The translations under genes were made by a program, and so were the position numbers. Positions 1,265-32,452 of a DNA stretch of 63,179 nucleotides are shown in pieces. The notes beneath the pieces were generated by a model. That model saw only the letters and a list, made by a program, of their open reading frames with translations, did no database searches and was not told the origin of the DNA. Each line of letters starts with the position of its first letter. The first letter of the stretch is position 1. Where the stretch lies: the NCBI GenBank assembly GCA_965371665.1, contig CBDUZI010000003.1:1-63179 (forward strand), in the 5' to 3' direction. This stretch comes from an uncultured bacterium. GTDB taxonomy: Bacteria > Oederibacteriota > JAAXVQ01 > JAUVAV01.

Positions 1265-1579
1265 GATTTCTCTCCTAGGCAGACTGCAGGGCTTAAAGCA
1301 TTCGGGAAGGACATGCTTGGTTTTACGTAAGGGTGCTTCCGCAAAATAAAATTGACCACATCGTCCCATTTTCTACGTGCCTCACTATATCACCTTTTAC
1401 CTGAGAAAAGAAGGGCAGGCACATAAAAAGTTAGAGATGGCCGCGCTTTCTTCATCCGCTGGATCCCGGCCTATCCTGGTTGGAAGATTTTTTTAATCAA
1501 CTGCATTTTTTTTTGAAAGGATTTAGTCCGCGCCCTGTCGAACTATATATTGAACCAAATTACACCCGGGAGTGGATTA

Positions 1580-4500
1580 ATGTCTGTAAATAATCGCAGC
1601 CATCGCGGTATTTCCTGTTTGCTCTGTTTTTTACTGGTTTTTCCTGCACATTTCGTTCCCCTTTCAAGCCAGGGCCGGATAATTGGCCAACCAACCCGGT
1701 CCCGGCCTGAATATTCTTTTCGCCAATTGGTTATCTATATTCCTGATATTTTTGATAATGCCAAAGAAATAGCGAAAGCCCTTTCTCGCCTGCGCGCCAA
1801 AGGAATCCCGGCCCAGGATATAATAAATCTTGCCCAACATCCTGATTTTGATCCCAAATCAGGGCTGGCAGTGCAGGCCGAGCAGTTGGCACGAATCGCG
1901 GAAGTGGAATCCGCCAAGCGCAGGGGGCTCAAGGCCCATCTGATTGCCAAAGGCACTGGCGGCCTGGTGGCCCGTGCTTATCTGGCCGCGGCCAAAGAAA
2001 TCCGGCCCGCGGGAGCGCCTATTATTGATGTTATAGGCATCGGAGTTCCGCATAATGGAAGATTATGGGCCAAGTGGGCATATGCTCTGGCTCTTCCCTT
2101 GCCTGGAGTGGGCGCGCGTTCAGCCGCAGTACGCGACCTCTCACCGGACTCCCGGTTTATGCGTAAATTGAATCAGCTTAAAAACAAACGCGAAAAAATG
2201 GTTCATGCGGCCGAAGCAACGCTGACAAGCCTGTATGACCTCCCCTTCAATCAGAAACTTCAAGCCAAACTTACTGCCATTGACAGGGCCAAAGCCGAGG
2301 CTGCAGAACAGGTGGATCGGATCTTCAGTTCCCCGGAAAGTATTAAATTAGGTCCGCAAGACATGCAACACATTAATGAAATGAAAAGTTCGTGCCAGGC
2401 GCTGAAAATGGCATGCGAGAAATTTGACAATACGCTTGCCAAAGAGGCCAGGGTAAAGGAGCTGGCCAGGCTGGGGCATGATATTAATCGTGAACAGGTT
2501 AAAATCCGCCAAAAGATTGCCGAGCAGTCCCGGAAACCCGCTGACTGGCTGGAGCGCTCGCCCCTGGCCCAAAAGCTGTTGGAAATCAAGGATTTAAGCA
2601 GGGTAATTGAAACCAAATCTGATCAGGCTCAGGGCCGCTTGCTGGATATTCTTTATTCCCCGGAATTCTACCAATTAGGCCTGGTTCCCGGAAATCCGAA
2701 AAACCAACTCCTATCCACTATTGCCGGAAAGACCCAAGAACTGGGAGAGATTTTCTCGCAGGATAAGTGCAAAAAGGCCTTGGATGAGCTCGACCTCTTT
2801 TATGGCCGGACCACGCCGAGGCTGAGAAAACAATGGGATGATTTTACCGCCATGTCAGTCACTGTTTCCCAAAAGCCCCTGGGGCATAAGCCGGGGAGTA
2901 GATTTGCCCGAGCTGCGATCGCCTTAACCCGCCTGCAAACGGCCTGGGATGAGATGGAGGAATCCCGGCAAAAATGGCTGGCCGGGCTCAAGCAATACGC
3001 AGAGGCTGAATCGAATATCTTCCTGCGCGATAAATTTCAGGCCTATCAGGAAAATATAGAGCTGTCAGCGCAGCAACTTGAAAAAAGCGCTCCCGCGGAT
3101 TTTGCAAAAGCCCGGCAGATCATGGACAAGGCCAAACAGATTCTGACTCCAGCCCGGGATGAACTCTTTTCTTCTCCGAATATGCCCACGCTCACAGACG
3201 CGGTCCGGGCCAGGTATCAGGCTTTTAAAATCCACCAAGAAGATTTTTTGGATGCAGTAGAGTACGCGAGAGAAAAAGTTTCAAGCCGGATTGTTAAAAA
3301 GGAATACCTGCTGTATTTGGAGCGCGCGAATCATTTGGACCAACTGGTCATGGATAAAATGTCTCATCGCCCAGGGGAATTAACTCAAGCTATCATAGCC
3401 TTGGAAATGGGCTCCGCAGTCAAGGAAATGGAAATGTTTGCCCAGACCTCGCGCCAACGTCTGGATCGCGAGTTTGAGAAACTCTACCATAAGATGGAAG
3501 TTCCCCCTTCTTCTGACCCATTATTTTCCCATGACCCGAGCCAGTCTGACGGCCGGGTCTTGCATGAGAGCTTAAGTAAAATCAAGCAGAGCCTGAGCAG
3601 CTATAAATCACTCCGCGATCTGGATTATCTTAAGGGAAAATCCGACCTGCTCAAGTTGCACTTGCAAAAACAGACCCAGGCAGCAGAGCGAAGCCTGCCT
3701 GCCTTTGATGCAGTCCGGGCGCTGGAGAAAATGGGACATGCCGAGCAATGTATGAAAATGATATACTCCCGGAGCGCGGGGGATTTAAACCGAAAAGTTA
3801 TGCAAACTGATCTTGCCGCAGAACTATCTCAACTATCTCAAGAGCGCCGGGATCTGGTTATGGCTGTTCTGAGCATAACCGGCCAAGCCTTTGAACAAAC
3901 CAAAGCCTTTGATCTTACCCGCTTTGCCGCCCGTCTGGAAGCTTTTGGGCGGCTGCCATCGGCTAACCCGTTTTTTTGGAATCTCGCCCAACAGCAGATT
4001 AAATTGTATACGGAATCTAATAAGGCTTTGCGTCTCTACCGGAATTTGGCCAAGCTGGAAATAGCAGAGCAAGCGGCCAGGGATGCGGTATGGGATCATT
4101 TAAACAAGGCAGTTCAGCTCGATAAAGCCAGAAAACATATTGGCCACGCGGCCGGGGCATCGCAAACCATGACCTGCCTGCGTGAAAAATCTGATTTGCT
4201 GCAGCAACTTAACCTGAGAATAGAAAGGCTCTCCGCCTTGCAAGCTAAAACCCTTCCCTCTGCCCAGAATTTCCGGCTGCGTGATTGGCAAAATTTGAAA
4301 AAACAGATTGCAGCCGGGATAGCGCAAGAGAAGGAAATTCTTTTTAGCCGGCAGGCCTTGCTGACAAAAAGCTCTGCCCAAGTAAGCGCCTTTCTGCCTG
4401 CGCCATGGGATAGTCCGTTGAAACGTCAACATGACTTATATTCCGGCGAGACACTTGAACAAATTATGGAACACAAATATACGGAACATTTTAAAACCCT

Positions 4501-7500
4501 GGCTATCAAAGAGAAGCAAATAAAGCAAGACCTGCAAACTTGTATCCAGACCGTAAAGCAGGCCGGGCTTTTAGGCGAAATCAGGCAGGAACTACATGAT
4601 TTAAACAGCACCCAAATCCGGGCCCAGCATTACTTAAAGACTAATCTGCATCTGCTTAAGCAGCAGGTTTTGCTAAGCCGGCTCTTGCAGCAATTTGATA
4701 AGCCGCCTGATGAGGCAACGCATATGCCAGCCGCTTTGCATGGACCCGATATTGATAGGCAGCAAACCTTACAAAAGCCTGATGTCCAGAAAAAACTGGA
4801 AACATCCCGGATGGATCGGGAAAAAATAGCCGCGGCCCTGGACCTGATAAATATTGAAATATCCGCTCAGCTCATGAGCGCAGGGTTGAAATTTAATGCC
4901 GCCCAGGTCAAGTCAACCGCCCAACGCAGCCAGGCCCGGTTCAAAACCCGGCTGGTGGATATGGATAAGCAGTCCGGCCGGGAATGCCGGGATGCGCTTT
5001 TAAACATCAATCACCTGGCAGCCGGAGCTGCGCAGGATATCGGAGACATAATTAAGAATATTCATTTGGCATCTTTCACCTGCGACATTAGCCGGGCCCT
5101 GGCACGCGCTAAAGACCGGAGCAACCGGGCGGCCCAGGATATTGCCGCTGGCCGGGCACCGCCGGATTGGGATATCGCAGGAACACGAAGCGCCAAACCT
5201 CTACCGCAAATATACGAAAATGTTGTCAACCGTGCAGTGGATTTTATCCGGCAGCAGGCTATACGCACACAAGTCCAGCAATCCCTGGACCAGGTTGCCA
5301 TTCTGGGCAACGAGGCGCGCGCGCTGCTGGACCGGCATATTTTGAAAATTAGTGATCATTTGGCCAGGTTCATCTTTGCAGAAGCACGGCCCGCTATGCC
5401 CCTGCTCTCCTCTGCCAATCCGGCCCTGGACAGATTAGCTGAACAAATCGGCCTGGCAGGCTCCCAGTCTCAAATCCTTAAAGAACTCAATAAACTCCAA
5501 AACCTAAAAGACCATTTCAACGCCGGTCTGGAGCGCCAATTGCTGGAAATCCGGAGAGCGGATGCAGCCCTGGTTATGCAAGCTATTGCCGCAAAATATC
5601 AAACCCTGGGCGAGGAATTCCAGGAAGCATGCGGAAAAATTACCTGTCAGCTGAATTCCGGGAACCAGGCTTTGGATCCGGCCTTCAATTTCGTAAATCC
5701 GGGGCAGTTTAAGATTGATCAGGAACTCTTGCGAACCTTGCAGCAGGATGTTTTTACCAGGCTGGTGGAATCCCATCCCATCTTAAAAGAGCTTGAGAAA
5801 CCGAAGGATGTTATTGGCCTCTTGAATAACCTGGCAGCCCAAGGCGGGGCCCAGTTTTCTAAATGGCTGCATCGCACCGAGGCTTATAAACATGCAGAAA
5901 CTTTAGCCCGGCTGAGGCAGGAAGCCAAGCATCTGCTCGATCAGGCTGTTGCGCAAGGTACTATTGACTTGCTTAAAAACGACCTGGGCCGGCTCATGCG
6001 CGAGATAGGGCTCGAAACCAAACAGATCGAGACAATTTTCAGCACAGTCACCGGGCCTCTAAAAGATATGATCCTGCGTTCTGAGTTTATGCAGCAATTG
6101 GATGTTTTTCAACGCCTGCCGGACCTCATCACCGGCCAGATAGATTCTTTCATCGGCGATGTTCAGGCTTTGATAAGCAATAACGCTTTTATGCAATCCA
6201 TTAATGCCTTGGGTAAAAATGTCCTGGCTATCTGGGATCAGCTAAGCGGGGAAAAATCCTGGTCCCTGGCTGGGATGGGTCAAAAATTGGCAGCGCATTT
6301 TAGCGGAGCAGCCGGTTTCGGGCAGACGGCAATAAATCAAGTCCAGGCCTTGATCGCGGATATGGGCGGCTCCCACAACGCCCTTGGCCTATGGGCCGGG
6401 ATCTCGGAAGGTTTTAGTAAATTTGGCGAGAATCTAGCGGGCAGCCTAAAAGATTTCATTACCTCCTCCTGCAATATCGATCTGGGCGCGGCTTTTATGA
6501 ATTTCACTTTATCCCCCGGGCAATTCTTCACTAAAGCCGGAGATATGATCAGCGGATTTATAGCTGACAGTTTTGAGTTTCGTTTCGATTCCTCCGGCAG
6601 CTGGTTCCAGGCAGATCAGGTTTGGGATACAGTGGCCGATATTTTCAATTCCGAGAATTGGAAACTTGATTTTTTCCGGACCGCGGATGGATTTATGCAA
6701 TCCATTTCCGATGGTATCAGCTCATTGGCGGGCCGCGGCCTCGAGTGGGCTCAGAACTGCTGGCAGGAATACCTTGGCCAGGCGCAGGAGTATCTTGACA
6801 TCTTCACAAGCGGGCCGTCGCGATGGCTGGAAGAACTGACCAGCGGAAAGTGGGCGGACTCCATCAACGGTCTGATAGACAAATTCCTGCCCCCTGAGTT
6901 CCAGCCCGCCAAAAGCGCGCTGGAGAAGATTTATTTTACCTTTGACGCGGATTTTGATTTCTCGGCTGATTATATTTTCAGCGTGCTGGATGACTTGAGC
7001 GTTTATCTGAGTGATGATCTGCGCGGAATCTATGCGGATATTAGTGATCTATACGCGCAAGGACAAGAATACTCCCAAAGAGGACAAGCAGCCTGGGATG
7101 TCATCCAGAGCGGAGATTTAACATCCCTCGCTGTCATGGGCTCCCGGCTGCTTGGTTCCCTGGAAAACCCGGGTCCGGTGTACGTCCTGGGAAACGGCCC
7201 GGCTAGAAATAGAGGAGCGTATGCCAATCACACCGGACAAACCTATCAAAACTACATGGATGATTATCTTGCGCAACTCGACCCCAGCCTCCACAATCTC
7301 CCGGACATTTCGGCCGTAGGGGCGGCCTCCGGTATCCGCTCGAGCAGTTCAAATGTAGGGGCGGACCTCCGTGTCCGCCCAGGCAGTTCAAACGTAGGGG
7401 CGGACTTCCATGTCCGCCCGGGTATTTCCGACGCCGTCGCTGATGTCGATGCGCCCTTACTGGAAAAACCCGAATTATCTGCTCCGCGCGGCGGTATTCC

Positions 7501-8629
7501 CATGCCGCCGGGCAAAGGCCATTGGGAAATCGATCCCGCAACCGGAAGAAACGTCTGGGTGTCAGAAGAGGATTCAGAGACACCCTCCCTCCTTTCCCGC
7601 GTCGAAGGCATGCTCAAAGAAGGAGCCAAAACCTGGGCGGATCCCCGAAGATGGGGCCCCAAGGCGGAGAAAGTTAATGAGGCCATTATTGAAACAGCCC
7701 CTAAAGTCGGCGCCGTATTAAAAGAAGCCGGAAAGACCTGGGCTGATCCGAGGAGGTGGGAGAAAAAAGCGGAGAAGGTGAATAAGGCGGTGGGCCGCGG
7801 AGCGCCTGAAAAAGGTGAATATTTAAAAAAGACTGCTTATCAACTGGGCGATATTACAAAAGCCGGGATAAAAAGCTCCTTCAATTTAATGAAAAAAGGG
7901 GCAGCTAATTTTATTAATCCAAAAAAATATATTAAAACCACCAAAGACCTCTCGCGCTGGGGGTTAAACAAAGCAGGGCAAATTGGGAAAAACATTGGTA
8001 AAAAGGGGGCCGAAAATTTAAACAATGCCAGGATTTTCTGGAAAAACCCCAGCAAATTCAAGAATGGTCTTAAATTTTGGCAGGAACGCACCTTAAATAC
8101 TGCTTATAAACTAGATTTGGATTACGGCAAAACCGGCATCATCGATGGCACAAAATTCGGATTATGTGTAGGATACATGGCCAAATTTAAATTAGGAAGA
8201 CTTGGTCGTTTTAAAATCGGGTGTAAGAAAAGTGTTTTAAAAGAAGTAGTAAATGGCGAACTTATATTTAAAAAAGAAAATTATATAGGAGGTGAACTTG
8301 AATTTTTAGGAATGGGAGTTAAAATGGCCAAAGAGAACGGCAAGTATGACTTTGATTTCTATTGGAGCAAGGATTTTGTCGAAATTAACAAAGACGCTAT
8401 AGAAATAGGCGGCACATTTATTTTCCCAGGAACGCCTATAGGCGTAACCGGCGAAGGACACATTCATCTTGATAAATTACTAAAAAAGGCGATAATGCCA
8501 TTCAGGAGGAGAAAAAATGAAGAAAACAATCCAAAGAATAATGATACTGAATCTAGCTATAGGGAACTTGATTTCTATTTTTTCACCGATATCAGCTTCA
8601 GGAAGTTTGAAAAATATTACGTTTCCTGA
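1580..8629 (+). CDS. Giant secreted protein: lipase-like alpha/beta-hydrolase head with degenerate nucleophile motif, long helical region, Lys-rich C-terminal module
   Basis: Uninterrupted ~7.05-kb ORF. ATG 1580 is preferred over TTG 1550 because GGAG lies ~8 nt upstream, and it yields MSVNNRSHRG plus hydrophobic ISCLLCFLLVFPAHFV, which looks like a signal peptide. 'HLIAKGTGGLVARAYL' and 'GIGVPHNG' resemble the lipase/PGAP1 GHSxGG and GTPHxG motifs. More than 1,400 aa are Q/K/E/L/A-rich. Internal 35-aa duplication at 7613-7790. Confidence 0.8.
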   Translation: MSVNNRSHRGISCLLCFLLVFPAHFVPLSSQGRIIGQPTRSRPEYSFRQLVIYIPDIFDNAKEIAKALSRLRAKGIPAQDIINLAQHPDFDPKSGLAVQAEQLARIAEVESAKRRGLKAHLIAKGTGGLVARAYLAAAKEIRPAGAPIIDVIGIGVPHNGRLWAKWAYALALPLPGVGARSAAVRDLSPDSRFMRKLNQLKNKREKMVHAAEATLTSLYDLPFNQKLQAKLTAIDRAKAEAAEQVDRIFSSPESIKLGPQDMQHINEMKSSCQALKMACEKFDNTLAKEARVKELARLGHDINREQVKIRQKIAEQSRKPADWLERSPLAQKLLEIKDLSRVIETKSDQAQGRLLDILYSPEFYQLGLVPGNPKNQLLSTIAGKTQELGEIFSQDKCKKALDELDLFYGRTTPRLRKQWDDFTAMSVTVSQKPLGHKPGSRFARAAIALTRLQTAWDEMEESRQKWLAGLKQYAEAESNIFLRDKFQAYQENIELSAQQLEKSAPADFAKARQIMDKAKQILTPARDELFSSPNMPTLTDAVRARYQAFKIHQEDFLDAVEYAREKVSSRIVKKEYLLYLERANHLDQLVMDKMSHRPGELTQAIIALEMGSAVKEMEMFAQTSRQRLDREFEKLYHKMEVPPSSDPLFSHDPSQSDGRVLHESLSKIKQSLSSYKSLRDLDYLKGKSDLLKLHLQKQTQAAERSLPAFDAVRALEKMGHAEQCMKMIYSRSAGDLNRKVMQTDLAAELSQLSQERRDLVMAVLSITGQAFEQTKAFDLTRFAARLEAFGRLPSANPFFWNLAQQQIKLYTESNKALRLYRNLAKLEIAEQAARDAVWDHLNKAVQLDKARKHIGHAAGASQTMTCLREKSDLLQQLNLRIERLSALQAKTLPSAQNFRLRDWQNLKKQIAAGIAQEKEILFSRQALLTKSSAQVSAFLPAPWDSPLKRQHDLYSGETLEQIMEHKYTEHFKTLAIKEKQIKQDLQTCIQTVKQAGLLGEIRQELHDLNSTQIRAQHYLKTNLHLLKQQVLLSRLLQQFDKPPDEATHMPAALHGPDIDRQQTLQKPDVQKKLETSRMDREKIAAALDLINIEISAQLMSAGLKFNAAQVKSTAQRSQARFKTRLVDMDKQSGRECRDALLNINHLAAGAAQDIGDIIKNIHLASFTCDISRALARAKDRSNRAAQDIAAGRAPPDWDIAGTRSAKPLPQIYENVVNRAVDFIRQQAIRTQVQQSLDQVAILGNEARALLDRHILKISDHLARFIFAEARPAMPLLSSANPALDRLAEQIGLAGSQSQILKELNKLQNLKDHFNAGLERQLLEIRRADAALVMQAIAAKYQTLGEEFQEACGKITCQLNSGNQALDPAFNFVNPGQFKIDQELLRTLQQDVFTRLVESHPILKELEKPKDVIGLLNNLAAQGGAQFSKWLHRTEAYKHAETLARLRQEAKHLLDQAVAQGTIDLLKNDLGRLMREIGLETKQIETIFSTVTGPLKDMILRSEFMQQLDVFQRLPDLITGQIDSFIGDVQALISNNAFMQSINALGKNVLAIWDQLSGEKSWSLAGMGQKLAAHFSGAAGFGQTAINQVQALIADMGGSHNALGLWAGISEGFSKFGENLAGSLKDFITSSCNIDLGAAFMNFTLSPGQFFTKAGDMISGFIADSFEFRFDSSGSWFQADQVWDTVADIFNSENWKLDFFRTADGFMQSISDGISSLAGRGLEWAQNCWQEYLGQAQEYLDIFTSGPSRWLEELTSGKWADSINGLIDKFLPPEFQPAKSALEKIYFTFDADFDFSADYIFSVLDDLSVYLSDDLRGIYADISDLYAQGQEYSQRGQAAWDVIQSGDLTSLAVMGSRLLGSLENPGPVYVLGNGPARNRGAYANHTGQTYQNYMDDYLAQLDPSLHNLPDISAVGAASGIRSSSSNVGADLRVRPGSSNVGADFHVRPGISDAVADVDAPLLEKPELSAPRGGIPMPPGKGHWEIDPATGRNVWVSEEDSETPSLLSRVEGMLKEGAKTWADPRRWGPKAEKVNEAIIETAPKVGAVLKEAGKTWADPRRWEKKAEKVNKAVGRGAPEKGEYLKKTAYQLGDITKAGIKSSFNLMKKGAANFINPKKYIKTTKDLSRWGLNKAGQIGKNIGKKGAENLNNARIFWKNPSKFKNGLKFWQERTLNTAYKLDLDYGKTGIIDGTKFGLCVGYMAKFKLGRLGRFKIGCKKSVLKEVVNGELIFKKENYIGGELEFLGMGVKMAKENGKYDFDFYWSKDFVEINKDAIEIGGTFIFPGTPIGVTGEGHIHLDKLLKKAIMPFRRRKNEENNPKNNDTESSYRELDFYFFTDISFRKFEKYYVS
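7344..7422. repeat. Two tandem 39-bp units with the hairpin core GGGCGGAC-N6-GTCCGCCC, inside the giant ORF
   Basis: 'cagttcaaa(t/c)gtaggggcggac(ctccgt/ttccat)gtccgccc' occurs twice. It translates as SSSNVGADLRVRPG / SSNVGADFHVRPG. Confidence 0.8.
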
Positions 8630-8846
8630 AATACTATTAGGCGTCTGGATATTCATTTCCATTATTTGCGCCATCTATATTTTGTTTTTTTCTTTTTCAC
8701 ATTGGAGCAAGCAATCATTTACCAGCGGCTTTATGAAATTTATCTGGCTTTTTGTAATCATTTTCGGCATGTTTATTCATTTTGCCGGACCAATTCTGTA
8801 TTATATTATGGTTGTTGAATTGAAGAAAACTTTAATAAAAATTTAA
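8517..8846 (+). CDS. Small integral membrane protein (about 3 hydrophobic spans), function unknown
   Basis: ATG preceded by 'AGGAGGAG' ~7 nt upstream. Hydrophobic segments include ILLGVWIFISIICAIYILFF and FIWLFVIIFGMFIHFAGPILYYIM. Overlaps the giant ORF's 3' end by 113 nt in another frame. Confidence 0.6.
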   Translation: MKKTIQRIMILNLAIGNLISIFSPISASGSLKNITFPEILLGVWIFISIICAIYILFFSFSHWSKQSFTSGFMKFIWLFVIIFGMFIHFAGPILYYIMVVELKKTLIKI

Positions 8847-8938
8847 CTTGTAATTCCCCGTAGATTGCTACGGGGTTACCTGATGGAGTTCCCCCTTTGG
8901 AAAAGGGGGCTAGGGGGATTTTACTGCGGGGAGAATTC
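8847..8938. repeat. Family-2b MITE-like element
   Basis: Termini 'cttgtaattccccg' / 'cggggagaattc'. Core 'ccccctttggaaaagggggctagggggatttt'. Its reverse complement aligns with 21985-22090. Confidence 0.75.
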
Positions 8939-8976
8939 ATTTAGTTTCTATTGCAAAAAGGTTGTTTTAGTTTTTT

Positions 8977-9058
8977 GTCATTCCGAGGAAGCGAAGCGAC
9001 CGAGGAATCTCCTTGAAAACTAGGGATTTTAGAGATTCCTCGCTGCGCTCGGAATGAC
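8977..9058. repeat. Family-1 palindromic element (GTCATTCCGAGG...CTCGGAATGAC)
   Basis: About 35-bp imperfect arms: 'gtcattccgaggaagcgaagcgaccgaggaatctc' and 'gagattcctcgctgcgctcggaatgac'. Confidence 0.8.
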
Positions 9059-9147
9059 AAAGTGTGAGAATTCCGTTAAAAATACTCTTCCCGCAACATG
9101 AGCTAATTGGGCATGGGTCAAAATCATCTTTAAAAGGAGAAATTAAA

Positions 9148-10002
9148 ATGAAAAAAAGCCTAAGCATTATAATATTATCTGCATTTTGTTGTATCCTGGC
9201 CGCATCAGCGCTGGCTACAGTCCCAAAGTTAATCAATTATTCCGGTAAACTAACGGATAAAGCTGGGAACGTCTTGCCTGACAAAGCTTATGACATACGT
9301 TTCTCCTTATGGACCGCGCAGACCGGCGGAACTGAGGATTGGTGGGAGGAACATTACATAACGCAAGTAAGAGGCGTCCAGACATACGGAGGCGGATTCA
9401 ATGTGGTTCTAGGCGGCACGAGACCTTTCCCGGTTTTTGATCAAAATTATTGGCTGCAATTAACCGTAACCATAAACAGCACGCCTGAGACCTTTTCCCG
9501 GCAGGAACTTATTACTGTGCCCTATGCAATGCGCGCGGAGTGGGCGAATGAAGCAAAAACTGTTGAAGATAATGCCATTACTCATGCTAAAATAGCTCCC
9601 GGCGCTGATCTGCCTATTGGTTCGATAATAGCTTGGCATAAAAATCTGGGCGGTGTCCCTAGCCTGCCTCCTCAATATGTCGAGTGTAATGGCCAAGCCT
9701 TAAATGATCCCTCAAGTCTTTTAAATGGTCAAATTATACCTAATTTGAATGGAGAAGGTAGATTTTTAAGGGGTAGTAATGTTGCCGGAACCATGCAAGC
9801 GGATGAATTGAAAAGTCATAATCATCAAGTTATCTCAAGTTGGCCTTCTGCTACTTGTACAGAATGGCATGTTGTCGCTGATTGGATGGATCCTGGAGAA
9901 GGTGTGACTTGGGAGAACTGGGGGCCCTCATTAACGCATACTGGCGGGTCTGAAACACGCCCTATTAATATGAGTGTAGTTTGGATCATGAAGATAAAGT
10001 GA
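9148..10002 (+). CDS. Secreted protein with phage tail-fibre/collar-like C-terminal domain
   Basis: Start moved to ATG 9148 (AAGGAG upstream; MKKSLSIIILSAFCCILAASALA looks like a signal peptide). C-terminal 'GSIIAWHK...PNLNGEGRFLRGSN...ELKSHNHQV...HTGGSETRPINMSVVWIMKI' follows the tail-collar pattern (G-I-x-W ... PDLRGRF ... HxH ... ETRPxN). Confidence 0.5.
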   Translation: MKKSLSIIILSAFCCILAASALATVPKLINYSGKLTDKAGNVLPDKAYDIRFSLWTAQTGGTEDWWEEHYITQVRGVQTYGGGFNVVLGGTRPFPVFDQNYWLQLTVTINSTPETFSRQELITVPYAMRAEWANEAKTVEDNAITHAKIAPGADLPIGSIIAWHKNLGGVPSLPPQYVECNGQALNDPSSLLNGQIIPNLNGEGRFLRGSNVAGTMQADELKSHNHQVISSWPSATCTEWHVVADWMDPGEGVTWENWGPSLTHTGGSETRPINMSVVWIMKIK

Positions 10003-10052
10003 TTCTTCTTTAATTTAAGACATTTTTTAAATGTGGAGATTAGTATTTAACC

Positions 10053-10682
10053 ATGGTTAATATACCAATACGGCATAAGTTTCTTCTGAAACAATTAATC
10101 AAAGCACAGGAAATATATTTCCCCAATAAAGCTATTAAGGCATTAGATATTGGAGCGTCTAATGGGAGTTTTATTACATTAGCAAGTAAACGCATTTGTA
10201 ACTTAGAAAGAATTGACGGCGTAGAAACAGATTCAACTTATGCTGATTATATTTCATCAATGGGCCATTTATTTATCCAAGACCTTCAGATTGACACCGG
10301 AAATATTCCATTGCATACATATAATATTATCACTATGTGGGAAATTATTGAGCATATTGAAAATATCTACGTTTTTTTAAGGAACGTTAAAAACCTCCTT
10401 GCTAAAGATTCAATTATTACAATTGCTACGCCCAACACAATGAGTTTCAGTAGACTATTTAAGGGTAATAACTGGATAGGAACGAGGGATAGAAGTCACA
10501 GAATCTTATATGATAAATTAACCTTGAAAATGCTGCTGGAAAACTCAGGATATTCCATTTTAAAGATATGCAATTATTTTTTCCCTAACAGATTACCGGA
10601 AGCATTTTCAGTGCTAAATAATATCACGTCACCTTTTCCAGGCGGAGGAATGCTGTTTGCTATTGCTAAGATAAAGCAGTAA
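10053..10682 (+). CDS. Class I SAM-dependent methyltransferase
   Basis: Motif I-like 'ALDIGASNGSF', 'ITMWEIIEHIEN', and 'SIITIATPN' post-motif. Confidence 0.7.
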   Translation: MVNIPIRHKFLLKQLIKAQEIYFPNKAIKALDIGASNGSFITLASKRICNLERIDGVETDSTYADYISSMGHLFIQDLQIDTGNIPLHTYNIITMWEIIEHIENIYVFLRNVKNLLAKDSIITIATPNTMSFSRLFKGNNWIGTRDRSHRILYDKLTLKMLLENSGYSILKICNYFFPNRLPEAFSVLNNITSPFPGGGMLFAIAKIKQ

Positions 10683-10721
10683 TCGGATTTCGTTTTTAAA
10701 TATATTTTTTCTTGACATAGC

Positions 10722-10811
10722 CCAGGAGCCTGAGCAATTAGTCGCTGGATTCCCGATACGATCATTCGGGAATGACAACCTAAAAAACAGACTAATTACT
10801 CAGGCTCCTAG
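10722..10811. repeat. Family-1 MITE-like element with 19-bp terminal inverted repeats
   Basis: TIRs 'aggagcctgagcaattagt' (10724-10742) and 'actaattactcaggctcct' (10791-10809) have 1 mismatch. Inner hairpin 'ggattcccga...tcgggaatgac'. Confidence 0.75.
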
Positions 10812-10860
10812 CAAGAATTGATAGCAAGCTTACTGATAATAATTTTAAATCCTGCAAAGG

Positions 10861-12399
10861 TTGAGGATTTTTATTTTGATATATTACTCTAAACTCCATA
10901 CACTCGGCCTAATTTCTATTTTTGCCTCCATCCTACTACTTGCCCTCCTGCATATGCTGCAATCCACAACAATTTGGGATGATGCATTTATTACCCTTCG
11001 GGTTGCAAACAACTGGGCTCAAACCGGCATTCCGGTTTATAATTTAGGTCAGACGGAATGGATTCCTACTAACTTTTTATGGGTGGCATTACTTGCCGGC
11101 CTTAACAAACTAACGCTAATCAATCTACCTCTGCTAAGTCAAATCACTGGAGGAATATGTGGAATAGGTATTATTATTTTATTATTAACAATTCCGTTTA
11201 AAGAAAACACCCGGACAGTAAATATTTTTGCAGCAATCTTATGCAGTTTATCGGCTCTTTGGGCAGCCTGGCCATTATCCGGCTTGGAAACCAGTTTGTT
11301 TTCTTTGTTGATAACAGCCGGGGTATTATTAATTATTATTTATTTTGATAAACCCAAAAAGGAAACATTAATCGCTTCCGCCATCTTGTTAGGCATGGCC
11401 TCACTAACTAGACCAGAAGGTATAGTATTTTTTATTATTTGCTCTTTTTTTATCCTTTTATATAAAAGAAAATGGCATTATCCAGGTTGGTTTGCATTGG
11501 TATTTGGAGCAATAATTTCATCTGGGATCCTGTATTTATTGCTGACTTTTAAAACTATACTGCCCACTTCCTATTTTGTAAAAATCCATGGACTCCAGAA
11601 TATTGCTCCTGGCATGGCATATCTGAAATCCTTATCCCAAATTTATAATCTTATCTGGGTTATGCCCATTTTTATTTTTCCTTTTCTTTTAAAAAACGAA
11701 AGGAAAAAAACCCTTTTTTTAACAATGATTCTATGCGGATGGTTTGCTTGCATTGGTATCATTGGCGGTGATTTCATGCCTTATCACCGTTTTATATCTC
11801 CAGTCTGGCCGCTGCTCTGCTTTTATATAGCTTTTAGTCTTGGTTCTTTAATGGATTACTGGCAAAAAAAACAGCCAACTTATGAATTATTGTTCAAACT
11901 TGGTATTTATGTTATATTGGGTCTCATTTCTTTGAACTTTATACTTCCTACTTTCCATGGTAAAGATCACACTCGGGTTCAATCCTGGAGCCGCGAAGAA
12001 GCTGACAGGACCGCCATCGGCAAATGGTTTAGAGGCCGTTATGAACACACGGACTGGGTAGCTGTTAAACCTGCAGGCATCATACCTTTTTATTCGAACA
12101 TGAATGCCCTGGATTTTTATTGTCTTTCTTCCCGTCAGGCTGCTCAGACCGGCCAATTTGTGCCGCAACATTGGGTGGGACATCAAAAAGTGAATGTGGA
12201 TTGGGTGCTTAAGCAGCGTCCGCGCATTGTCATCCTGGACGAGCATTTATATTCCTTCGAAAATCTTCCAGAACCTGATCAGGGAGAAGGTATTATTGAA
12301 CGAGAATGGCGAAAAAGCCCGCTACGACAGAATTATAAATCTTTTCAGATTGAATTACAGGCTAACAGATGGCTTCAATATTTTGAACGAATTGATTAG
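10861..12399 (+). CDS. Polytopic membrane protein, GT-C-type glycosyltransferase-like
   Basis: About 10 or more hydrophobic spans followed by a soluble C-terminal domain. N-terminal 'WDDAFITLRVANNW' loop resembles GT-C (arabinosyl/mannosyl-transferase-like) first-loop acidic motifs. The TTG start is uncertain. Confidence 0.45.
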   Translation: MRIFILIYYSKLHTLGLISIFASILLLALLHMLQSTTIWDDAFITLRVANNWAQTGIPVYNLGQTEWIPTNFLWVALLAGLNKLTLINLPLLSQITGGICGIGIIILLLTIPFKENTRTVNIFAAILCSLSALWAAWPLSGLETSLFSLLITAGVLLIIIYFDKPKKETLIASAILLGMASLTRPEGIVFFIICSFFILLYKRKWHYPGWFALVFGAIISSGILYLLLTFKTILPTSYFVKIHGLQNIAPGMAYLKSLSQIYNLIWVMPIFIFPFLLKNERKKTLFLTMILCGWFACIGIIGGDFMPYHRFISPVWPLLCFYIAFSLGSLMDYWQKKQPTYELLFKLGIYVILGLISLNFILPTFHGKDHTRVQSWSREEADRTAIGKWFRGRYEHTDWVAVKPAGIIPFYSNMNALDFYCLSSRQAAQTGQFVPQHWVGHQKVNVDWVLKQRPRIVILDEHLYSFENLPEPDQGEGIIEREWRKSPLRQNYKSFQIELQANRWLQYFERID

Positions 12400-12456
12400 C
12401 CAATAGTATAGAGATAATCATTTTCCGTTTTATTTTTTAAAAGGAGCAAAAAGTTT

Positions 12457-13977
12457 ATGAATGTTTTTAAAATTAATTTTGATCGTGTAAAGCGCATCAT
12501 TTTTACAGATGTTCGATTTTCATTATTGTCTATATTTATTCTTTCTTTAGGAGGAATATTACGTTTTTGGCATCTGAATCGCCAAAGTTTATGGCAGGAT
12601 GAAATACATACCGCCATCTATGTCAATGATCATCCTTCTCTATGGGAAGTAATTCATCGCGTAGCCACCTGGGATTTGCATTCCCCCTTGTTTTATGTCT
12701 TGCTCCGGGTCCAAGTATGGTTCCAGCAGTTGGTTAGTATTCCTTTAACCGACGGCAATCTCCGAATCATCTCCGCTTTATTAGGCTTTTTAGCCCTGCC
12801 CGTTCTATATTTTTTATTCCGAAGAGTATTCAATCATAAATTTTACGCCTTATCAGCTGTTTTCCTGGCGGTTATAAATATTTACGGTATTTATTATTCG
12901 CAAGAACTGCGTATGTATTCCTTAATTTTATTATTATCTCCCTCACTGCTTTACTTCGGTTTAAACCTTTGGGACAATGATAATAAACTAAACCTCGGCG
13001 CTGCTATGGGATATGTCACATGTAGTGTAATGCTTATTTATTCAAGTCTGGTTACTTTATTTTTTGTATTTGGTGTATGGCTAAGTGTTTTGGTAATAAG
13101 TGTTTTCCAAAGAAAAAACCATCCCCAGCAAATAACCGAGGTTATTAAGCTTGGTTTTATGATCTTCATCTGCTATCTGCCCTGGTTAGGTGTGATGTGG
13201 AAACAAAGCATGACACTAAAGGAGGGCGTTGGAACCGGGCTGGTTATTACTCACCCTCGCGAGTTATTTAAATTCGCTTTTGAGAAATTACTTTTCCATG
13301 ACTGGAAACTGGATATAAATTATGGCATCATTAATAAAATTGTCCGTAATTTAATCCCCTTCTCATTATTGAATCTTCTCGATCGCAAAAACCGCCAGAA
13401 ACACTTGCTGATCATTTCCAGTTTTTGCTTCGCGTTTATCTTGTATTATGTGATTATTTTTAACCGGGATTTTCAATGTTCCCGTTACTTTGCCCCCTGG
13501 TGGCCCTACGCTATATATTTCATTGTGGCGGGTTTTTCAGGTATAATTTACTGCTTAAATAAAATTAACCCTCGCCTGAAGTTAGCCGGTATTATTTTCA
13601 TGGCTCTATTTATGGGTTACTATACTTTTGTCCAGTCAAAACAAATACATTACTACTTTTCACAGTATGAAAAAGAGAATTGGCGGGGACTGGTTGAATA
13701 TCTAAATATCCACAAAAAAGCAGGGGATGTTTTGGTCACCGGCGGAGACTGGCATAAAACTAATTTAACCTATTATGGCGTTACTTTACCCTTTGTATAT
13801 ACCCATGATCTTAAAAATGATAAATATACCGCTAATTTCAAACGCTATATTTATATTGAGGTGAAAAATCCACAATATGATACAAAATTAAGACTTCCCC
13901 AAAATTTTAAAAAAGTCCCCTGGCCTATACATTGTAAAAATTATTATATCTGGGAGCCGGAAAGTAAATCGCATTAA
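12457..13977 (+). CDS. Glycosyltransferase family 39 (ArnT/PMT-like) membrane protein
   Basis: AAGGAG RBS ~10 nt upstream. 'SLWQDEIHTA' first-loop motif typical of GT39/ArnT-like proteins. Many TM spans plus a C-terminal soluble part. Confidence 0.55.
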   Translation: MNVFKINFDRVKRIIFTDVRFSLLSIFILSLGGILRFWHLNRQSLWQDEIHTAIYVNDHPSLWEVIHRVATWDLHSPLFYVLLRVQVWFQQLVSIPLTDGNLRIISALLGFLALPVLYFLFRRVFNHKFYALSAVFLAVINIYGIYYSQELRMYSLILLLSPSLLYFGLNLWDNDNKLNLGAAMGYVTCSVMLIYSSLVTLFFVFGVWLSVLVISVFQRKNHPQQITEVIKLGFMIFICYLPWLGVMWKQSMTLKEGVGTGLVITHPRELFKFAFEKLLFHDWKLDINYGIINKIVRNLIPFSLLNLLDRKNRQKHLLIISSFCFAFILYYVIIFNRDFQCSRYFAPWWPYAIYFIVAGFSGIIYCLNKINPRLKLAGIIFMALFMGYYTFVQSKQIHYYFSQYEKENWRGLVEYLNIHKKAGDVLVTGGDWHKTNLTYYGVTLPFVYTHDLKNDKYTANFKRYIYIEVKNPQYDTKLRLPQNFKKVPWPIHCKNYYIWEPESKSH

Positions 13978-14028
13978 ACGGCCGACGCGCTATGTTGACG
14001 ATGGCAACCGCAGCCCTGCGCCGAAAGG

Positions 14029-15498
14029 ATGAACATGCTGTTTTTAAAAATATCAACTATTGTTTTTTTATCTGCCGCGGGCTATTTTATAGATAAAAAA
14101 TGGCCCAATATAAAGCATACCATCTCCGGCAAAATCAACTGGAACCTGGCCGCTTTTTCTTTAATGGCCGTTTATTTTATCTTTTATCTCATCTTGAAAA
14201 TCACCCAGCATTATTCTTTTCATACCAATGCCTTTGATCTATCCATCTTTGACTACGCCGTGGCGAATACTCTGCGCGGCAAATTTCTTCATGTTCCCTT
14301 TTTAAACGGCTCGTTTTTAAAGGAGCATTTTAGCCCGATTCTGCTTTTACTCACGCCGTTGTATATGCTTAAAAAATCACCGATTAATCTGCTGGTGCTC
14401 CAATGCCTGGCCGTGGCCGGTGCGGCCTGGCCGTTATTCTTGTTGGCCAAAAAGCAACTGGCAAATAAAGCCTTGGCCCTGGTTATTGTTTTTGCATATT
14501 TAAATAACTGGTATCTTGTTCATGGATTGCTCTATGATTTTCATGTGGAAATGTTCGAACCATTGCTGATCATATTAATGGTTTGGGGATATTTGGAAAG
14601 AAAATATCCAATTTACTGGACTTCCCTGCTGCTGGCGCTTATGTGCAAAGAAGATGTAGGCATTTATCTCTTTTTCTTCGGTCTATTTGTATTAATTAAA
14701 GAAAAACGATTCAAGTTAGGTTTAATCACTTCCGCAGCATCGCTGTTATGGGTTTTAACTGCTTTAATAATCATAGCATTTATGAATAATGGCGCTGCTG
14801 CTTTCTCAGGCTATAAATTTTTAACCAATTGGATTCCCCCAGATACCAGTCTGTCGGAATATTTTTTCCATTGGGTTTCTCATCCTCATGAAGCCGCAAG
14901 TATCTTTTTGAATATGCGAGTCTGGCAACTGATTTATCCTCTGGCTTTTCTTCCGCTGTTTTCCTGGTGGGGCATTCTGCTCCTGGCGCCAATTGGATTG
15001 AATGCCGCCAGCGCCAATTCGCTGCAAGCTGGTTTTATGCTGTATTATTCCGCGCCCATAATTCCTTTTTTATTTGTGGGAATTATCTTCGGTCTGAAAA
15101 ACTTAATCCAACACAATACTAACAAATTCTGGATTTTGCTTGGTTTATGCCTCTATTTAGCAATCTTCAATGTACACCGCTATTCTCAGGATAGTATCGA
15201 GGCCCGGCATAAGACCGGGAGCGCAATGCTGCAGAGTATCCCGGAAAACGTCCCACTGGCTGCTCAAGGCAGCCTGGTGCCGCATATTTCCCATCGCGAG
15301 CACATTCACATTTTACCCAGGATGGAAGCCAGCGATGAATATATTGCTTTAGACCTGGCTGGCAACCATTTTCCCATGACCAGGAAAGAGCTTTTAGATA
15401 TTTATAAATCCATTAAAAACAATCCGAAATATCAGGAAATCTTTAACCAAGATGATTTTATACTATTTCAGAAATCAAGAAAGAATGACACCATTTAA
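14029..15498 (+). CDS. DUF2079-like polytopic membrane protein (GT-C-like)
   Basis: 'FHTNAFDLSIFDYAVANTLRGKFLH' matches the conserved N-terminal loop I recall for DUF2079. Polytopic. Confidence 0.55.
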   Translation: MNMLFLKISTIVFLSAAGYFIDKKWPNIKHTISGKINWNLAAFSLMAVYFIFYLILKITQHYSFHTNAFDLSIFDYAVANTLRGKFLHVPFLNGSFLKEHFSPILLLLTPLYMLKKSPINLLVLQCLAVAGAAWPLFLLAKKQLANKALALVIVFAYLNNWYLVHGLLYDFHVEMFEPLLIILMVWGYLERKYPIYWTSLLLALMCKEDVGIYLFFFGLFVLIKEKRFKLGLITSAASLLWVLTALIIIAFMNNGAAAFSGYKFLTNWIPPDTSLSEYFFHWVSHPHEAASIFLNMRVWQLIYPLAFLPLFSWWGILLLAPIGLNAASANSLQAGFMLYYSAPIIPFLFVGIIFGLKNLIQHNTNKFWILLGLCLYLAIFNVHRYSQDSIEARHKTGSAMLQSIPENVPLAAQGSLVPHISHREHIHILPRMEASDEYIALDLAGNHFPMTRKELLDIYKSIKNNPKYQEIFNQDDFILFQKSRKNDTI

Positions 15499-15632
15499 AT
15501 TCAGCTCCTCATTGCCATTGACTCACTGAACAAGATTTTGCTATACTTCCCTGAAATCGCCTTGCTCTTTGCGGCAAACTCAGCTACATTTTATGGCAAG
15601 TGGAATATACTAGTTCTAAAGGATGTAACTTT

Positions 15633-15980
15633 ATGGAAATTATTCAGGCTAAAATAACCAAAACCGAGCTCATGAAAAAACATATGAATTTTTTCCAATC
15701 CATGACCAAGGCAGTTGTGGATGTGGAAAAAGGAATCATGGCGCTTGACGCCGACTTGCATGCAGACCTGGAGGCCTTGCTATTGGACCAAGGCTCGCGT
15801 CAGGAATATTTGTGGGGAATCAACCTGCATCCTTTAAAGGACCAAAATGATTTCGTCGAATATACCGCTCTGATAAATATTCGCCCCTGGCAGGAAAATG
15901 CTTCAATGGAAATAGCCAATCCGGAGATCAAGCAACGCGTTAACCATATTGTGGAAGCACTGATGGACTATGCAGCTTAA
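15633..15980 (+). CDS. Hypothetical small protein (possibly DUF5674-like)
   Basis: Start moved to ATG 15633 (AAGGA upstream). 'AVVDVEKGIMALDADLHADLEALLLDQGSRQEYLWGINLHP...INIRPWQ' resembles a family common in uncultivated lineages, from memory only. Confidence 0.4.
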   Translation: MEIIQAKITKTELMKKHMNFFQSMTKAVVDVEKGIMALDADLHADLEALLLDQGSRQEYLWGINLHPLKDQNDFVEYTALINIRPWQENASMEIANPEIKQRVNHIVEALMDYAA

Positions 15981-16317
15981 AGAACACAAAACATTGACCA
16001 CGGATAAGTGGCGCCGGTTTCCGCTCGCTAAACAAATTCTCATGATTAGCAACGAACTTAACCGGGCTCAACATTGGATAGGACGGCAAGATACTTCTGA
16101 GGTCAATCATTGTTATGAAAGAGCCCTCGAACTTCTCTACCTGACCATTGCAGTGGCTGATAAATTCACACTCCGGAAGGAGCTTTTGCGCATGCGTGAC
16201 CAACTCGCGCTGCAGTACATCAATTCAAAGAAAAACGCCCGCGCCAATCAAGCCCTTTTCCGGATTCTTTTAACGCTGGACAAGGATAGCTATAATCTAT
16301 TAAAATACTCTTCCTAA
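15970..16317 (+). CDS. Hypothetical small helical protein
   Basis: ORF overlaps the upstream gene by 11 nt, suggesting translational coupling. No motif recognised. Confidence 0.4.
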   Translation: MQLKEHKTLTTDKWRRFPLAKQILMISNELNRAQHWIGRQDTSEVNHCYERALELLYLTIAVADKFTLRKELLRMRDQLALQYINSKKNARANQALFRILLTLDKDSYNLLKYSS

Positions 16318-16437: not shown

Positions 16438-16689
16438 ATGCCGCTTATTTCATTAAAAAAATTCAGTGTTGACGATCTCATTGATCTGATAGTCACTTTA
16501 ACGGTTTGTTTTGGAATTTTTGTAACTTTGATCGTGATTAACTTGATAATTTTTATCAATCCGGCTGCCGCCTCCCAACTTATCGGAACTGTCAGCGCAC
16601 AAAAAGGGGTAGGCGTTGGCGCTATATTATTTACTTCCTACCTTATATTGCGCTTAGTCTACCGCAGGAGAAAAAAAAATGCCGAATGA
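16438..16689 (+). CDS. Small membrane protein (2 hydrophobic spans, basic tail RRRKKN)
   Basis: ATG 16438 with AGGTGA ~8 nt upstream. Spans are LIDLIVTLTVCFGIFVTLIVINLIIFI and GVGVGAILFTSYLILRLV. Confidence 0.5.
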   Translation: MPLISLKKFSVDDLIDLIVTLTVCFGIFVTLIVINLIIFINPAAASQLIGTVSAQKGVGVGAILFTSYLILRLVYRRRKKNAE

Positions 16690-17221
16690 ACCTCTGGCCT
16701 ACCAGTCTAAATTCAAATATCTTTTAATGTTTCAAATAGTCCTGTTGCTTACGGCTTTGTCCGCCTTTGTTTATATTAGTTCCAAAGTGTCCAGTGAACT
16801 TAAGGCTTATAAAACCCTGAAAGAAACCCGCGACCAGGCTGAACAGGAATACCGGGCCTTAAGGTCTAATATTGAAAAATTCCATTCCTTAAAAATAACC
16901 TCTGCAAATGAGGTCTATGAAGTGAAAGCCACGGCCCGAGCCACTGGCGCTAAAACCCCGCAGGGATATCCCGTATACAAATTTTCCATGTATATTAATT
17001 CTCCTCCTGAACTATTGCATAGCATAACCAAAGTCACTTATGAATTCAATCATCCGACCTTTTCGAAGCCGCTGCATGAAGTAACCGATGCCCGCTCTAA
17101 ATTTGCCACCTTTTATACCGGATGGGGTTGCCTGAATTCGGTGCTAGTAAAAGTCTATCTTAGTGATAACACTTTACAAACCATAGATTTTAATATGTGC
17201 AAAAATATAGGCTGGGAATAA
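16679..17221 (+). CDS. Membrane-anchored coiled-coil protein with C-terminal prokaryotic-YEATS (pYEATS)-like domain
   Basis: AGGAG RBS. N-terminal TM LLMFQIVLLLTALSAFVYI, then a helical 'KAYKTLKETRDQAEQEYRALRSNIEKF' segment. C-terminal 'ITKVTYEFNHPTFSKP...SKFATFYTGWGCLNSVLVKVYLSDN' fits the pYEATS signature (V-x-Y-x-LHPTF ... GWG-x-F). Confidence 0.5.
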   Translation: MPNEPLAYQSKFKYLLMFQIVLLLTALSAFVYISSKVSSELKAYKTLKETRDQAEQEYRALRSNIEKFHSLKITSANEVYEVKATARATGAKTPQGYPVYKFSMYINSPPELLHSITKVTYEFNHPTFSKPLHEVTDARSKFATFYTGWGCLNSVLVKVYLSDNTLQTIDFNMCKNIGWE

Positions 17222-31446: not shown

Positions 31447-32433
31447 TTATTTTCTCCCGGCCTTTGCTCCCAGTTTCATAAAAAGAACTTCCAATAAAAG
31501 CTGGGGATTAATATTTCTCTTCATCTGATGGATAGCCTTTAAAACCGTTTGGCACTTCTCTCCCAGTGACTCCGGGCTTTCACCCGCAAGGGCGGCTTCC
31601 AGTTCTGTCAGGCGATCACTATTCATAATCAGTTCGCGGGACGCCCGGCAGGATAATATCGTTAAATCGCGGAACCAGGAGAGGAGTATGTCCAGCATTT
31701 CCGGCAGTTCAGCGCGATGTTCACCCCACTGGACCGCTGCCTCCGGCCAATCGCGGGGTCCCAAATTTCTCATCGTCTCGAGAACCCGATTCCGCAACGC
31801 CTGCGTATTTTCATCCGCCAGGCGCAAGGCTTTTGCCGGACGCCCCCCGGATTGCATCGCCAGCGCCAGCGCCTGGTCCGCCTGACAGGCCAGCCGATCC
31901 TTTAGCCAGGAGGACAAAACCCGGGCTTCCAGGGGCCGGAAGCGGACCGTCTGGCAGCGCGACCGAATAGTTTCCAATAGCGCAAAAGGCTGGGTGGTAA
32001 TCATTACCAGAATTACCGCCGGCGGCGGCTCTTCCAGGAGTTTTAATAAGCTGTTGGCCGCCTCCAAGGTAAGCGTTTCAGCTGAATCAAGTATATAAAG
32101 TTTGGTACTGCCTTCCATCGGTTTTAATATTGCATCCCTTTGTAATTGTTCGCGTATCTGGTCGATTTTTAAAAATTGTCCTTCCGGCTCTATAATTCTT
32201 ACGTCCGGATGAACGCCCTGAGTAATCTTGCGGCAAGCCGGGCATTTCCCGCAAGCCTCCCCTTCCTCGGGTTTGGTACAATTAAGGTCTTGGGCTAAAG
32301 CCAGGGCGGTGGCCCGCTTGCCGACTCCTTCCGGCCCGGTAAATATAAAAGCATGCCCCAGCCGTCTATTCCGCACCGAGCGCTTAAAATATTCAATCGC
32401 CCGTGGTTGTCCTTTTATATCCCGAAACGGCAT
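31447..32433 (-). CDS. holB: DNA polymerase III delta-prime subunit
   Basis: 'FTGPEGVGKR' Walker A, Zn module 'C...CGKCPACRKI', 'SRCQ' sensor motif. Confidence 0.85.
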   Translation of the reverse strand: MPFRDIKGQPRAIEYFKRSVRNRRLGHAFIFTGPEGVGKRATALALAQDLNCTKPEEGEACGKCPACRKITQGVHPDVRIIEPEGQFLKIDQIREQLQRDAILKPMEGSTKLYILDSAETLTLEAANSLLKLLEEPPPAVILVMITTQPFALLETIRSRCQTVRFRPLEARVLSSWLKDRLACQADQALALAMQSGGRPAKALRLADENTQALRNRVLETMRNLGPRDWPEAAVQWGEHRAELPEMLDILLSWFRDLTILSCRASRELIMNSDRLTELEAALAGESPESLGEKCQTVLKAIHQMKRNINPQLLLEVLFMKLGAKAGRK

Positions 32434-32452
32434 ACTTTACTCTCCCTACTAC

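Follow-up and report, generated by a model that had tools for sequence, protein, structure and literature searches.

A polymorphic two-gene cassette at the 3' end of a giant open reading frame in a candidate phylum FCPU426 bacterium

This study concerns the 3' end of a giant open reading frame (ORF) and the small membrane-protein ORF that overlaps it. Both are located in contig CBDUZI010000003.1, a stretch of 63,179 nucleotides (nt) referred to here as the window; it derives from an uncultured soil bacterium of the candidate phylum FCPU426. Comparison with related loci showed that, at the level of sequence, the 3' end of the giant ORF and the small ORF constitute one polymorphic two-gene cassette. 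The existence of such a co-varying cassette is very probable, and the alignments showed that its types swap by recombination between a fixed left breakpoint, at base 7796 after the peptide ...KAEKVNKA, and a boundary past the small ORF. The family of the C-terminal module of the giant protein and that of the small ORF are both unannotated. From the layout we infer a toxin/immunity relationship, and an effector/immunity function of the pair is the interpretation that we favor, with confidence that falls a little short of even.

A replaceable cassette at the end of the giant ORF

The window is part of the ordinary chromosome of a diderm and carries a trp operon together with genes for MetRS, FTHFS, MetH, ComEC, TolC-like, and AcrB proteins; the host was counted as a diderm because of the TolC-like and AcrB genes. 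The giant ORF (1580..8629, plus strand) encodes 2349 amino acids (aa) from the ATG at 1580, as in the database call (P0001), and is open from a TTG at 1550 (2359 aa). Its product begins with a Sec-type signal sequence, MSVNNRSHRGISCLLCFLLVFPAHFVPLSSQG, and continues with a degenerate lipase-like region, a body of ~1900 aa that is mostly helical, and a variable C-terminal module at the end.

In a full HMMER search of 1.84 billion representative proteins, the C-terminal module matched six only. P0002, encoded by contigs L001 and L002, is 81% identical to the giant protein, and the giant protein of L003, which belongs to an NCBI metagenome-assembled genome (MAG) titled "candidate division FCPU426 bacterium", is 79% identical to that of the window. 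P0003 (L004/L007) and P0004 (L006), also among the six matches, represent a second, more distant lineage. P0005 (L005) represents the C terminus of a further giant ORF, which an assembly gap interrupts. The last of them, P0006 (833 aa), has only its last ~195 residues (~636-830) in common with the giant protein. Word-indexed protein searches with the module alone or the small ORF alone returned no match and missed the query itself too. A metagenome scan with the giant-protein alignment gave no match, and searches of phage, plasmid, and viral contigs were all negative. The cassette comparison therefore covered the window and five related loci, six DNA loci in all; P0006 is known from its contig.

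The replaceable segment, composed of the module, the small ORF, and downstream intergenic DNA, spans positions 7797..9120 of the plus strand and has no DNA similarity to L001 or L005. Relative to L001, DNA identity was 91.6% over positions 1272-7796, undetectable over 7797-9120, and 84-95% beyond. Relative to L005, it was 92% up to the same base, 7796; similarity was then absent until 9131, after which identity was 89-96%. Between close relatives, body DNA was 86-92% identical up to base 7796, past which the DNA could not be aligned and protein identity was ~25-30%. At the protein level, the break came directly after the duplicated motif ...TWADPRRW..KAEKVNKA. This motif forms a conserved junction (7617..7795, plus strand) with two copies of K(E)(G)AKTWADPRRW..KAEKVN.A, placed directly before the left breakpoint. 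L003 carries the cassette type of the window (88.7% identity over 7316-8840), yet the body of the window is nearer to that of L001. The second lineage displayed the same pattern, L006 and L007 being 90% identical up to ...AWVEIG and divergent after it. Since the partial proteins of L006 and L007 (locus tags K8S19_13615 and K8S19_13670) come from one MAG, these alleles are either paralogues or variants that coexist within one population.

The module comprises two parts. The first (7796..8104, plus strand) is a Lys-rich cationic helical segment of 103 aa with an isoelectric point of 10.4, assigned from secondary structure only, whose length and sequence depend on the cassette type. The second (8105..8515, plus strand) is a new beta domain of ~137 aa with the basic C-terminal end PFRRRK, and it is the portion that is conserved across all types and in P0006. 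At least four deep cassette types exist: A (window, L003, and L004/L007), B (L001), C (L005), and D (L006). Beta-domain identity was 25-37% between types and 52-82% within type A, and the corresponding values for the small ORF were 32-46% and 62-91%. Synonymous sites were saturated between types; synonymous divergence (dS) in the flanks was 0.1-0.3.

The small ORF was found directly downstream of the module in all six DNA loci and encoded 108-111 aa. Its ATG preceded the stop codon of the giant ORF by 8 nt in types B and D, by 20 nt in type C, and by 113 nt in type A; the downstream ORF on the P0006 contig likewise starts 8 nt before the stop. The combination of a beta domain and an overlapping downstream ORF is thereby also present on an unrelated carrier, with P0006 as the one such example. 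No recombination boundary between module and small ORF was found in the comparisons made, the nearest lying inside the 3' part of the small ORF (L005 versus L001). The sequence-only reading, an earlier interpretation of this DNA made from its letters, had anticipated that homologues would combine a conserved body with variable tips and co-varying small ORFs, and this was what the related loci displayed.

Composition and predicted structure of the module

The GC content of the giant ORF dropped from 0.513 over positions 1550-7799 to 0.358 over 7800-8629, and GC at third codon positions (GC3) was 0.36 for the module compared with 0.55 for the body. The AT-rich turn at ~7.8 kb reported by the sequence-only reading was thus reproduced, down to exactly 14 G+C in 8221-8280, and the step was seen in all loci. 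The description of a compositionally distinct, Lys/Asn-rich terminal module also held. Lys accounted for 18.4% of the helical part, 14.6% of the beta part, and 6.5% of the body, and Asn for 10.7% of the module versus 3.4% of the body. The view of the module as a foreign, cassette-sized AT-rich insert was abandoned; low GC instead opens a block of cell-surface-type genes that extends past the cassette to ~15.5 kb and varies between loci. The module, taken as the last ~245 residues of the giant protein ahead of the small-ORF start, is strongly cationic (net charge +17 in the helical part and +8 in the beta part), a property common to all types. Compared with L003, the 88.7% identical locus, omega was 0.12 for the helical part and 0.26 for the beta part; the giant body gave values of 0.30-0.36. 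Together with the value for the small ORF given below, these ratios indicate that module and small ORF are both under purifying selection within type A, which marks the two reading frames as real genes.

AlphaFold2 modeling of the beta domain from six sequences reached a predicted local distance difference test (pLDDT) score of 76.6. In the predicted fold, a short helix is followed by eight antiparallel strands arranged up and down, with an amphipathic helix at the C terminus. The model of the whole module, built from two sequences, was unusable (pLDDT 35). Foldseek searches of the beta-domain model against PDB and BFVD returned nothing below an E value of 1e-3. The best matches were weak (E 0.08, TM-score at most 0.35) and were up-and-down barrels, namely a designed transmembrane barrel, lipocalins, a fatty acid-binding protein (FABP), and NspA; FABP also appeared at a weak E value of 0.04 in a PDB profile search. 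In its order of elements, helix, eight strands, helix, the beta domain is lipocalin-like; matches to calycins and small up-and-down beta barrels were weak.

The small membrane protein

The small ORF (8517..8846, plus strand) encodes 109 aa in a frame that differs from that of the giant ORF and has predicted transmembrane segments. In agreement with the original description of a membrane ORF starting at 8517 in another frame, three hydrophobic segments were evident from hydropathy, and omega was 0.13 versus L003. The first segment, with a conserved P-x-S-x-S-G, is either signal-peptide-like or a first transmembrane helix, and two transmembrane helices come after it. Further conserved motifs are HW.KQ and GP(I/V)LY(Y/H)I.VVE.K.TL. 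The near-perfect Shine-Dalgarno sequence noted earlier was located on the plus strand at 8504-8511 (AGGAGGAG), 5 nt before the ATG, and is encoded by Arg codons of the giant ORF (FRRRK). An equivalent GGAGG or GGGAGG is contained within the terminal Arg/Lys codons of the giant ORF in the related loci examined. A promoter-like site lies at 8469-8496, the number of such sites not being above chance. In L009 and L004, both of type A, gene callers skipped the small ORF.

The C-terminal half of the small protein, with its two transmembrane helices, resembles the W...GP..Y pattern of PLDc_N (PF13396). Assignment to this family was rejected, the match of 19.2 bits (E 1.2e-3) being below the gathering cut-off of 23.3; two of the six members of the small-ORF family matched, and these were the two closest relatives only. 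A stand-alone relative of the same half was found on the GC-rich contig L008. The literature on PLDc_N and on FCPU426 contained nothing relevant that we could find.

Right after the stop codon of the small ORF, at 8857-8876 of the window, is a hairpin, CCCCGTAG-ATTG-CTACGGGG. A long palindrome with arms TTTGTCATTCCGAG and CTCGGAATGACAAA, 60 nt apart, occupies positions 8974-9061 in the variable intergenic DNA. It is single-copy in the window and had no Rfam match.

The 113-nt overlap

The overlap of giant and small ORF extends over 113 nt (8517-8629), as had been described. The comparison of loci indicates that it is real, the overlap being kept in L003 and in L004/L007 (~68% DNA identity). 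It is limited to type A, with types B, C, and D and P0006 overlapping by 8-20 nt, and it provides the giant protein with a type-A-specific tail of 37 codons plus stop (8516..8629, plus strand) that traverses the 5' part of the small ORF in another frame. We consider it next to impossible that the step in GC or the long overlap stems from an assembly chimera or a homopolymer error, or that the small ORF is a spurious product of one. With one more A, the A6 run (8512-8517) would yield ...RRRKK-TGA and leave an overlap of ATGA, and a sequencing error of such a kind had been named by the sequence-only reading as grounds for dismissing its proposal. However, the same architecture is present in L003, in L004/L007, and in L009, an independent 88x-coverage assembly that encodes a giant protein identical to that of the window. 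L003 and L007 hold the 113-nt overlap without the A-run, which in L003 is interrupted (GAGAAGAAATG). The GC step occurs in all loci, and both genes are under purifying selection.

A function of the overlap itself, either as true dual coding or through programmed frameshifting on the A-run, with fusion of the giant protein to the membrane protein as the result, appears very improbable. One A fewer in the A6 run would join both frames, and DNA of the overlap was 96.5% identical between the window and L003, compared with 87-90% in the flanks. In the same comparison, dS was lower in the overlap than outside it (0.08 versus 0.77 in the small-ORF frame and 0.056 versus ~0.3 in the giant frame); this suppression is the sole hint of extra constraint and rests on four substitutions. 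Substitutions in the overlap between the window and L007 pointed the other way, 17 of the 29 being synonymous for the small ORF and 3 of the 29 for the giant tail, in which the replacements were radical. By-eye counts gave an identity of ~51% for the tail, versus ~76% for the N terminus of the small protein. Purifying selection on both frames, as expected of dual-coding overlapping genes, was therefore not what we found. A function of the overlap is further opposed by the broken A-run of L003, by the other types, which stop within 8-20 nt, and by the RNA structure at the junction, which was nothing unusual (z -0.16) and had no credible Rfam match. When the small ORF was recoded synonymously, 25-42% of trials left the giant frame without a stop over 37 codons or more.

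Judged from these substitution patterns, the 37-aa tail is an unconstrained evolutionary by-product, and the overlap is incidental and does not look selected. The translational entanglement that had been singled out as a special feature of the pair consequently loses its significance, as it is confined to type A, arises readily by chance, and involves a tail under no constraint. The type-A overlap would have arisen by loss of the early stop that is still present in types B and D (ATGAxTAA), after which the giant frame would run open to the first T-GAA. The third base of each codon in the giant frame is the second base of a small-ORF codon, and because of this offset the xTx codons of the hydrophobic first segment of the small ORF make no stop in the giant frame. 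It stays open in type A because these transmembrane-coding codons cannot form stops there.

Function of the pair

Under the effector/immunity interpretation, the module would be a membrane-active effector and the small protein its cognate in-membrane partner, whose task in the cell that makes both would be to neutralize the module. The cationic character of the module and the small size and membrane-integral nature of its partner fit an effector that is directed at membranes and neutralized in the bilayer. The small protein of every type would protect against its own module only. The outcome would be strain-level discrimination of self and non-self, as with pore-forming colicins and their immunity proteins or with ionophore/CdiI pairs of contact-dependent growth inhibition (CDI). 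The location of the ribosome-binding site and start codon of the small ORF within the last codons of the giant ORF would keep the pair coexpressed.

Polymorphic toxin systems, of which CdiA-CT/CdiI, Rhs-CT/RhsI, and MafB/MafI are examples, were defined by Zhang et al. (2012, PMC3482391). The structural features of such systems were recovered here: a large conserved body, a sharply bounded and recombining C-terminal region with a conserved peptide right ahead of it, a co-varying small gene directly downstream, and a portable C-terminal domain found on unrelated N-terminal scaffolds, in low-GC cassette DNA. The differences are that the giant protein has a Sec signal and no known trafficking domain, that the variants belong to one new, non-enzymatic-looking, beta-rich family, and that no array of orphan cassettes is present. 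Closer parallels in logic are found among toxins that act on membranes. The pore-forming colicins A, E1, and Ia are paired with the membrane immunity proteins Cai, Cei, and Iia. CDI ionophore toxins form one group of homologues; the CdiI proteins that go with them are only ~30% identical and nevertheless specific for the cognate toxin (PMC11630599). Likewise, the cassette described here has one homologous family split into many putative specificity types, with partners that are only ~30-45% identical between types and are small multi-pass membrane proteins, possibly acting within the bilayer. Those toxins, however, are helical bundles, whereas an eight-stranded beta meander is predicted here after cationic helices, and no receptor or import domain could be identified. 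Membership in the helical pore-forming toxins or ionophores was for this reason rejected, and the resemblance is one of logic only.

Several observations weigh against an effector/immunity function. Pfam, NCBIfam, PADLOC, PHROGs, a PDB sequence search, and Foldseek revealed no recognizable family of toxins, immunity proteins, or trafficking proteins, and the beta domain keeps Gly, Asp, Lys, and Pro as its invariant residues, none of which form a set that looks catalytic. Searches of the whole 2349-aa protein against Pfam and NCBIfam found no domain, leaving the Sec-type signal as the sole trafficking feature; no domain of a known secretion route (type V, VI, or VII secretion system [T5SS, T6SS, or T7SS], Rhs, or filamentous hemagglutinin repeats) was recognized. 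We know of no route by which a helical protein of 2300 aa could reach another cell. All types belong to one domain family and not to a diverse toxin repertoire, and this family is very rare, given six proteins among the 1.84 billion. A tblastn search with all module and small-ORF types, run on the window, L001, and L003 to detect orphan modules or further small-ORF copies, returned the resident copy only. Finally, the cassette occupies the margin of a low-GC block of fiber-like and glycosyltransferase-like genes whose content changes from locus to locus, so that diversification of the cell surface could account for the polymorphism with no toxicity involved. The toxin/immunity proposal of the sequence-only reading thus stands as regards its layout, a co-varying and swappable pair whose domain also occurs on an unrelated protein, and is left without a recognizable toxin, immunity, or trafficking domain and without orphan cassettes.

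A non-toxic docking or identity pair is unlikely in our estimation and yet a serious rival. The module would then anchor or dock the giant envelope protein at the small membrane protein that belongs to it, or mediate kin recognition; the two would coevolve as an interface, and the polymorphism would stem from diversifying selection on a variable cell-surface island. A precedent for co-variation of this kind is the IdsD/IdsE pair of Proteus mirabilis, in which co-varying regions of a delivered protein and a small inner-membrane partner set strain identity and killing is not required. In both cases, the variable regions co-vary in a large protein and a small membrane partner, but IdsD is a T6SS substrate, there is no similarity in sequence or architecture, and the window contains no T6SS genes. 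We take this rival seriously because of the missing toxin fold and trafficking domain, the lack of orphan cassettes, the rarity of the family, and the variable block of surface genes. That block (7.8-15.5 kb) holds a fiber-like secreted protein, a methyltransferase, and three GT-C/DUF2079-type membrane proteins, its gene content varies between loci, and the second lineage retains the order giant ORF, small ORF, fiber-like gene, large membrane protein. Those residues that are invariant in the beta domain, moreover, appear purely structural. On the other hand, an inner-membrane partner would be unexposed to phages and predators, yet it has diverged as much as the module. The beta domain and overlapping ORF also end an unrelated protein, as would be expected of a portable effector more than of an anchor tied to one scaffold.

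That the two genes are functionally unrelated, the small ORF encoding an independent membrane protein that happens to lie within the same recombining segment, seems improbable. The stand-alone two-helix homologue on L008 occurs without any module, the small protein has weak similarity to PLDc_N-type hairpins, and the promoter-like site at 8469-8496 could drive the small ORF alone. Against such independence, the two genes are adjacent in every locus examined, in two unrelated protein contexts, with the start of the second inside the last codons of the first. The nearest recombination boundary, within the 3' part of the small ORF, also fails to separate them.

Returning to the effector/immunity interpretation, we put forward more tentatively a specific version of it. 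The cassette may define a previously unrecognized family of membrane-targeting polymorphic effectors, built of cationic helices and a new beta meander and countered by a type-specific immunity protein in the membrane. These would be carried by a new Sec-exported giant helical scaffold without known secretion machinery, with alleles that are kept as ancient balanced polymorphisms in the uncultured diderm phylum FCPU426 and a cassette capable of transfer to tape-measure-like proteins (P0006). An effector/immunity or recognition role of the pair would bring two new protein families and one new delivery scaffold to bacterial competition, in a phylum known solely from metagenomes, and would offer a clean natural case of alleles replaced at fixed breakpoints. 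Such cognate partner genes are likely under-annotated, because gene callers miss the small gene when the upstream ORF intrudes by 113 nt, as in L009 and L004. Should it be merely a docking pair, it would still be a well-defined coevolving interface that is usable for testing structure prediction.

Neighboring genes and further features

The cassette is followed by a gene (9148-10002) for a fiber-like secreted protein of 284 aa, which is similar to phage tail-collar fibers (phrog_1800, E 6.6e-10) and has a weak Bdello_MAT_N match. Its N-terminal part (9131-9533) was 82-90% conserved in L001 (two copies), L003, and L005, and its C-terminal part was variable, so that it looks, from these alignments, like a second mosaic gene adjoining the cassette. 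The gene content of the low-GC block differed among the window, L001, and L003; a Methyltransf_23 gene (10053..10682), for instance, is present in the window and absent from L001. The three large GT-C/DUF2079-type membrane proteins had weak Glyco_transf_22 and PMT_2 matches and a strong DUF2079 match at 14029..15498. With a GC content of 0.38, positions 10003-15600 look, by their gene content, like a variable surface-glycan island. The second lineage keeps the gene order of giant ORF, small ORF, fiber-like gene, and large membrane protein. The far edge of the low-GC block is marked by a DUF5674 gene (15600..15980) and a gene for a prokaryotic YEATS-domain protein (16679..17221). In L007, the gene after the small ORF (2319-2909) had a near-threshold match to Por_Secre_tail, the C-terminal sorting domain of the type IX secretion system (E 2.8e-5, 24.8 bits versus a cut-off of 27).

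Residues 180-413 of P0006 (contig ERZ1426817) are rich in glycine and hydrophobic residues and match phage tape-measure families (phrog_58, E 4e-16). The cassette of beta domain and small ORF may, by this similarity, also be carried by a phage-derived or tape-measure-like protein.

Within the giant protein, residues ~50-190 (window ~1730-2150) resemble a lipase or PGAP1-type alpha/beta hydrolase. The nucleophile elbow reads AKGTGG instead of GHSxG and has no Ser, and matches to lipases in PDB were weak (E 0.35-0.9); this N-terminal region may be a degenerate, non-catalytic hydrolase fold, as far as sequence can tell. An in-frame 39-nt tandem repeat of 2.7 copies (7315..7419, plus strand) encodes SNVGAD(L/F)(R/H)VRPG, and each of its units contains the hairpin GGGGCGGAC-N6-GTCCGCCC. 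L003 has 6.1 copies (15880-16116), and giant proteins differ in length between loci in part because the copy number of this repeat varies. A sub-threshold match of the repeat to the Rfam family CRISPR-DR29 (E 0.37) was taken as spurious.

Short intergenic repeats at 32428-32620 and 62988-63125 of the window were ~90-96% identical to L001 9514-9699 and L003 ~9585-9705, where their counterparts sit upstream of the giant gene. On the strength of these copies, they look like members of a dispersed repeat family.

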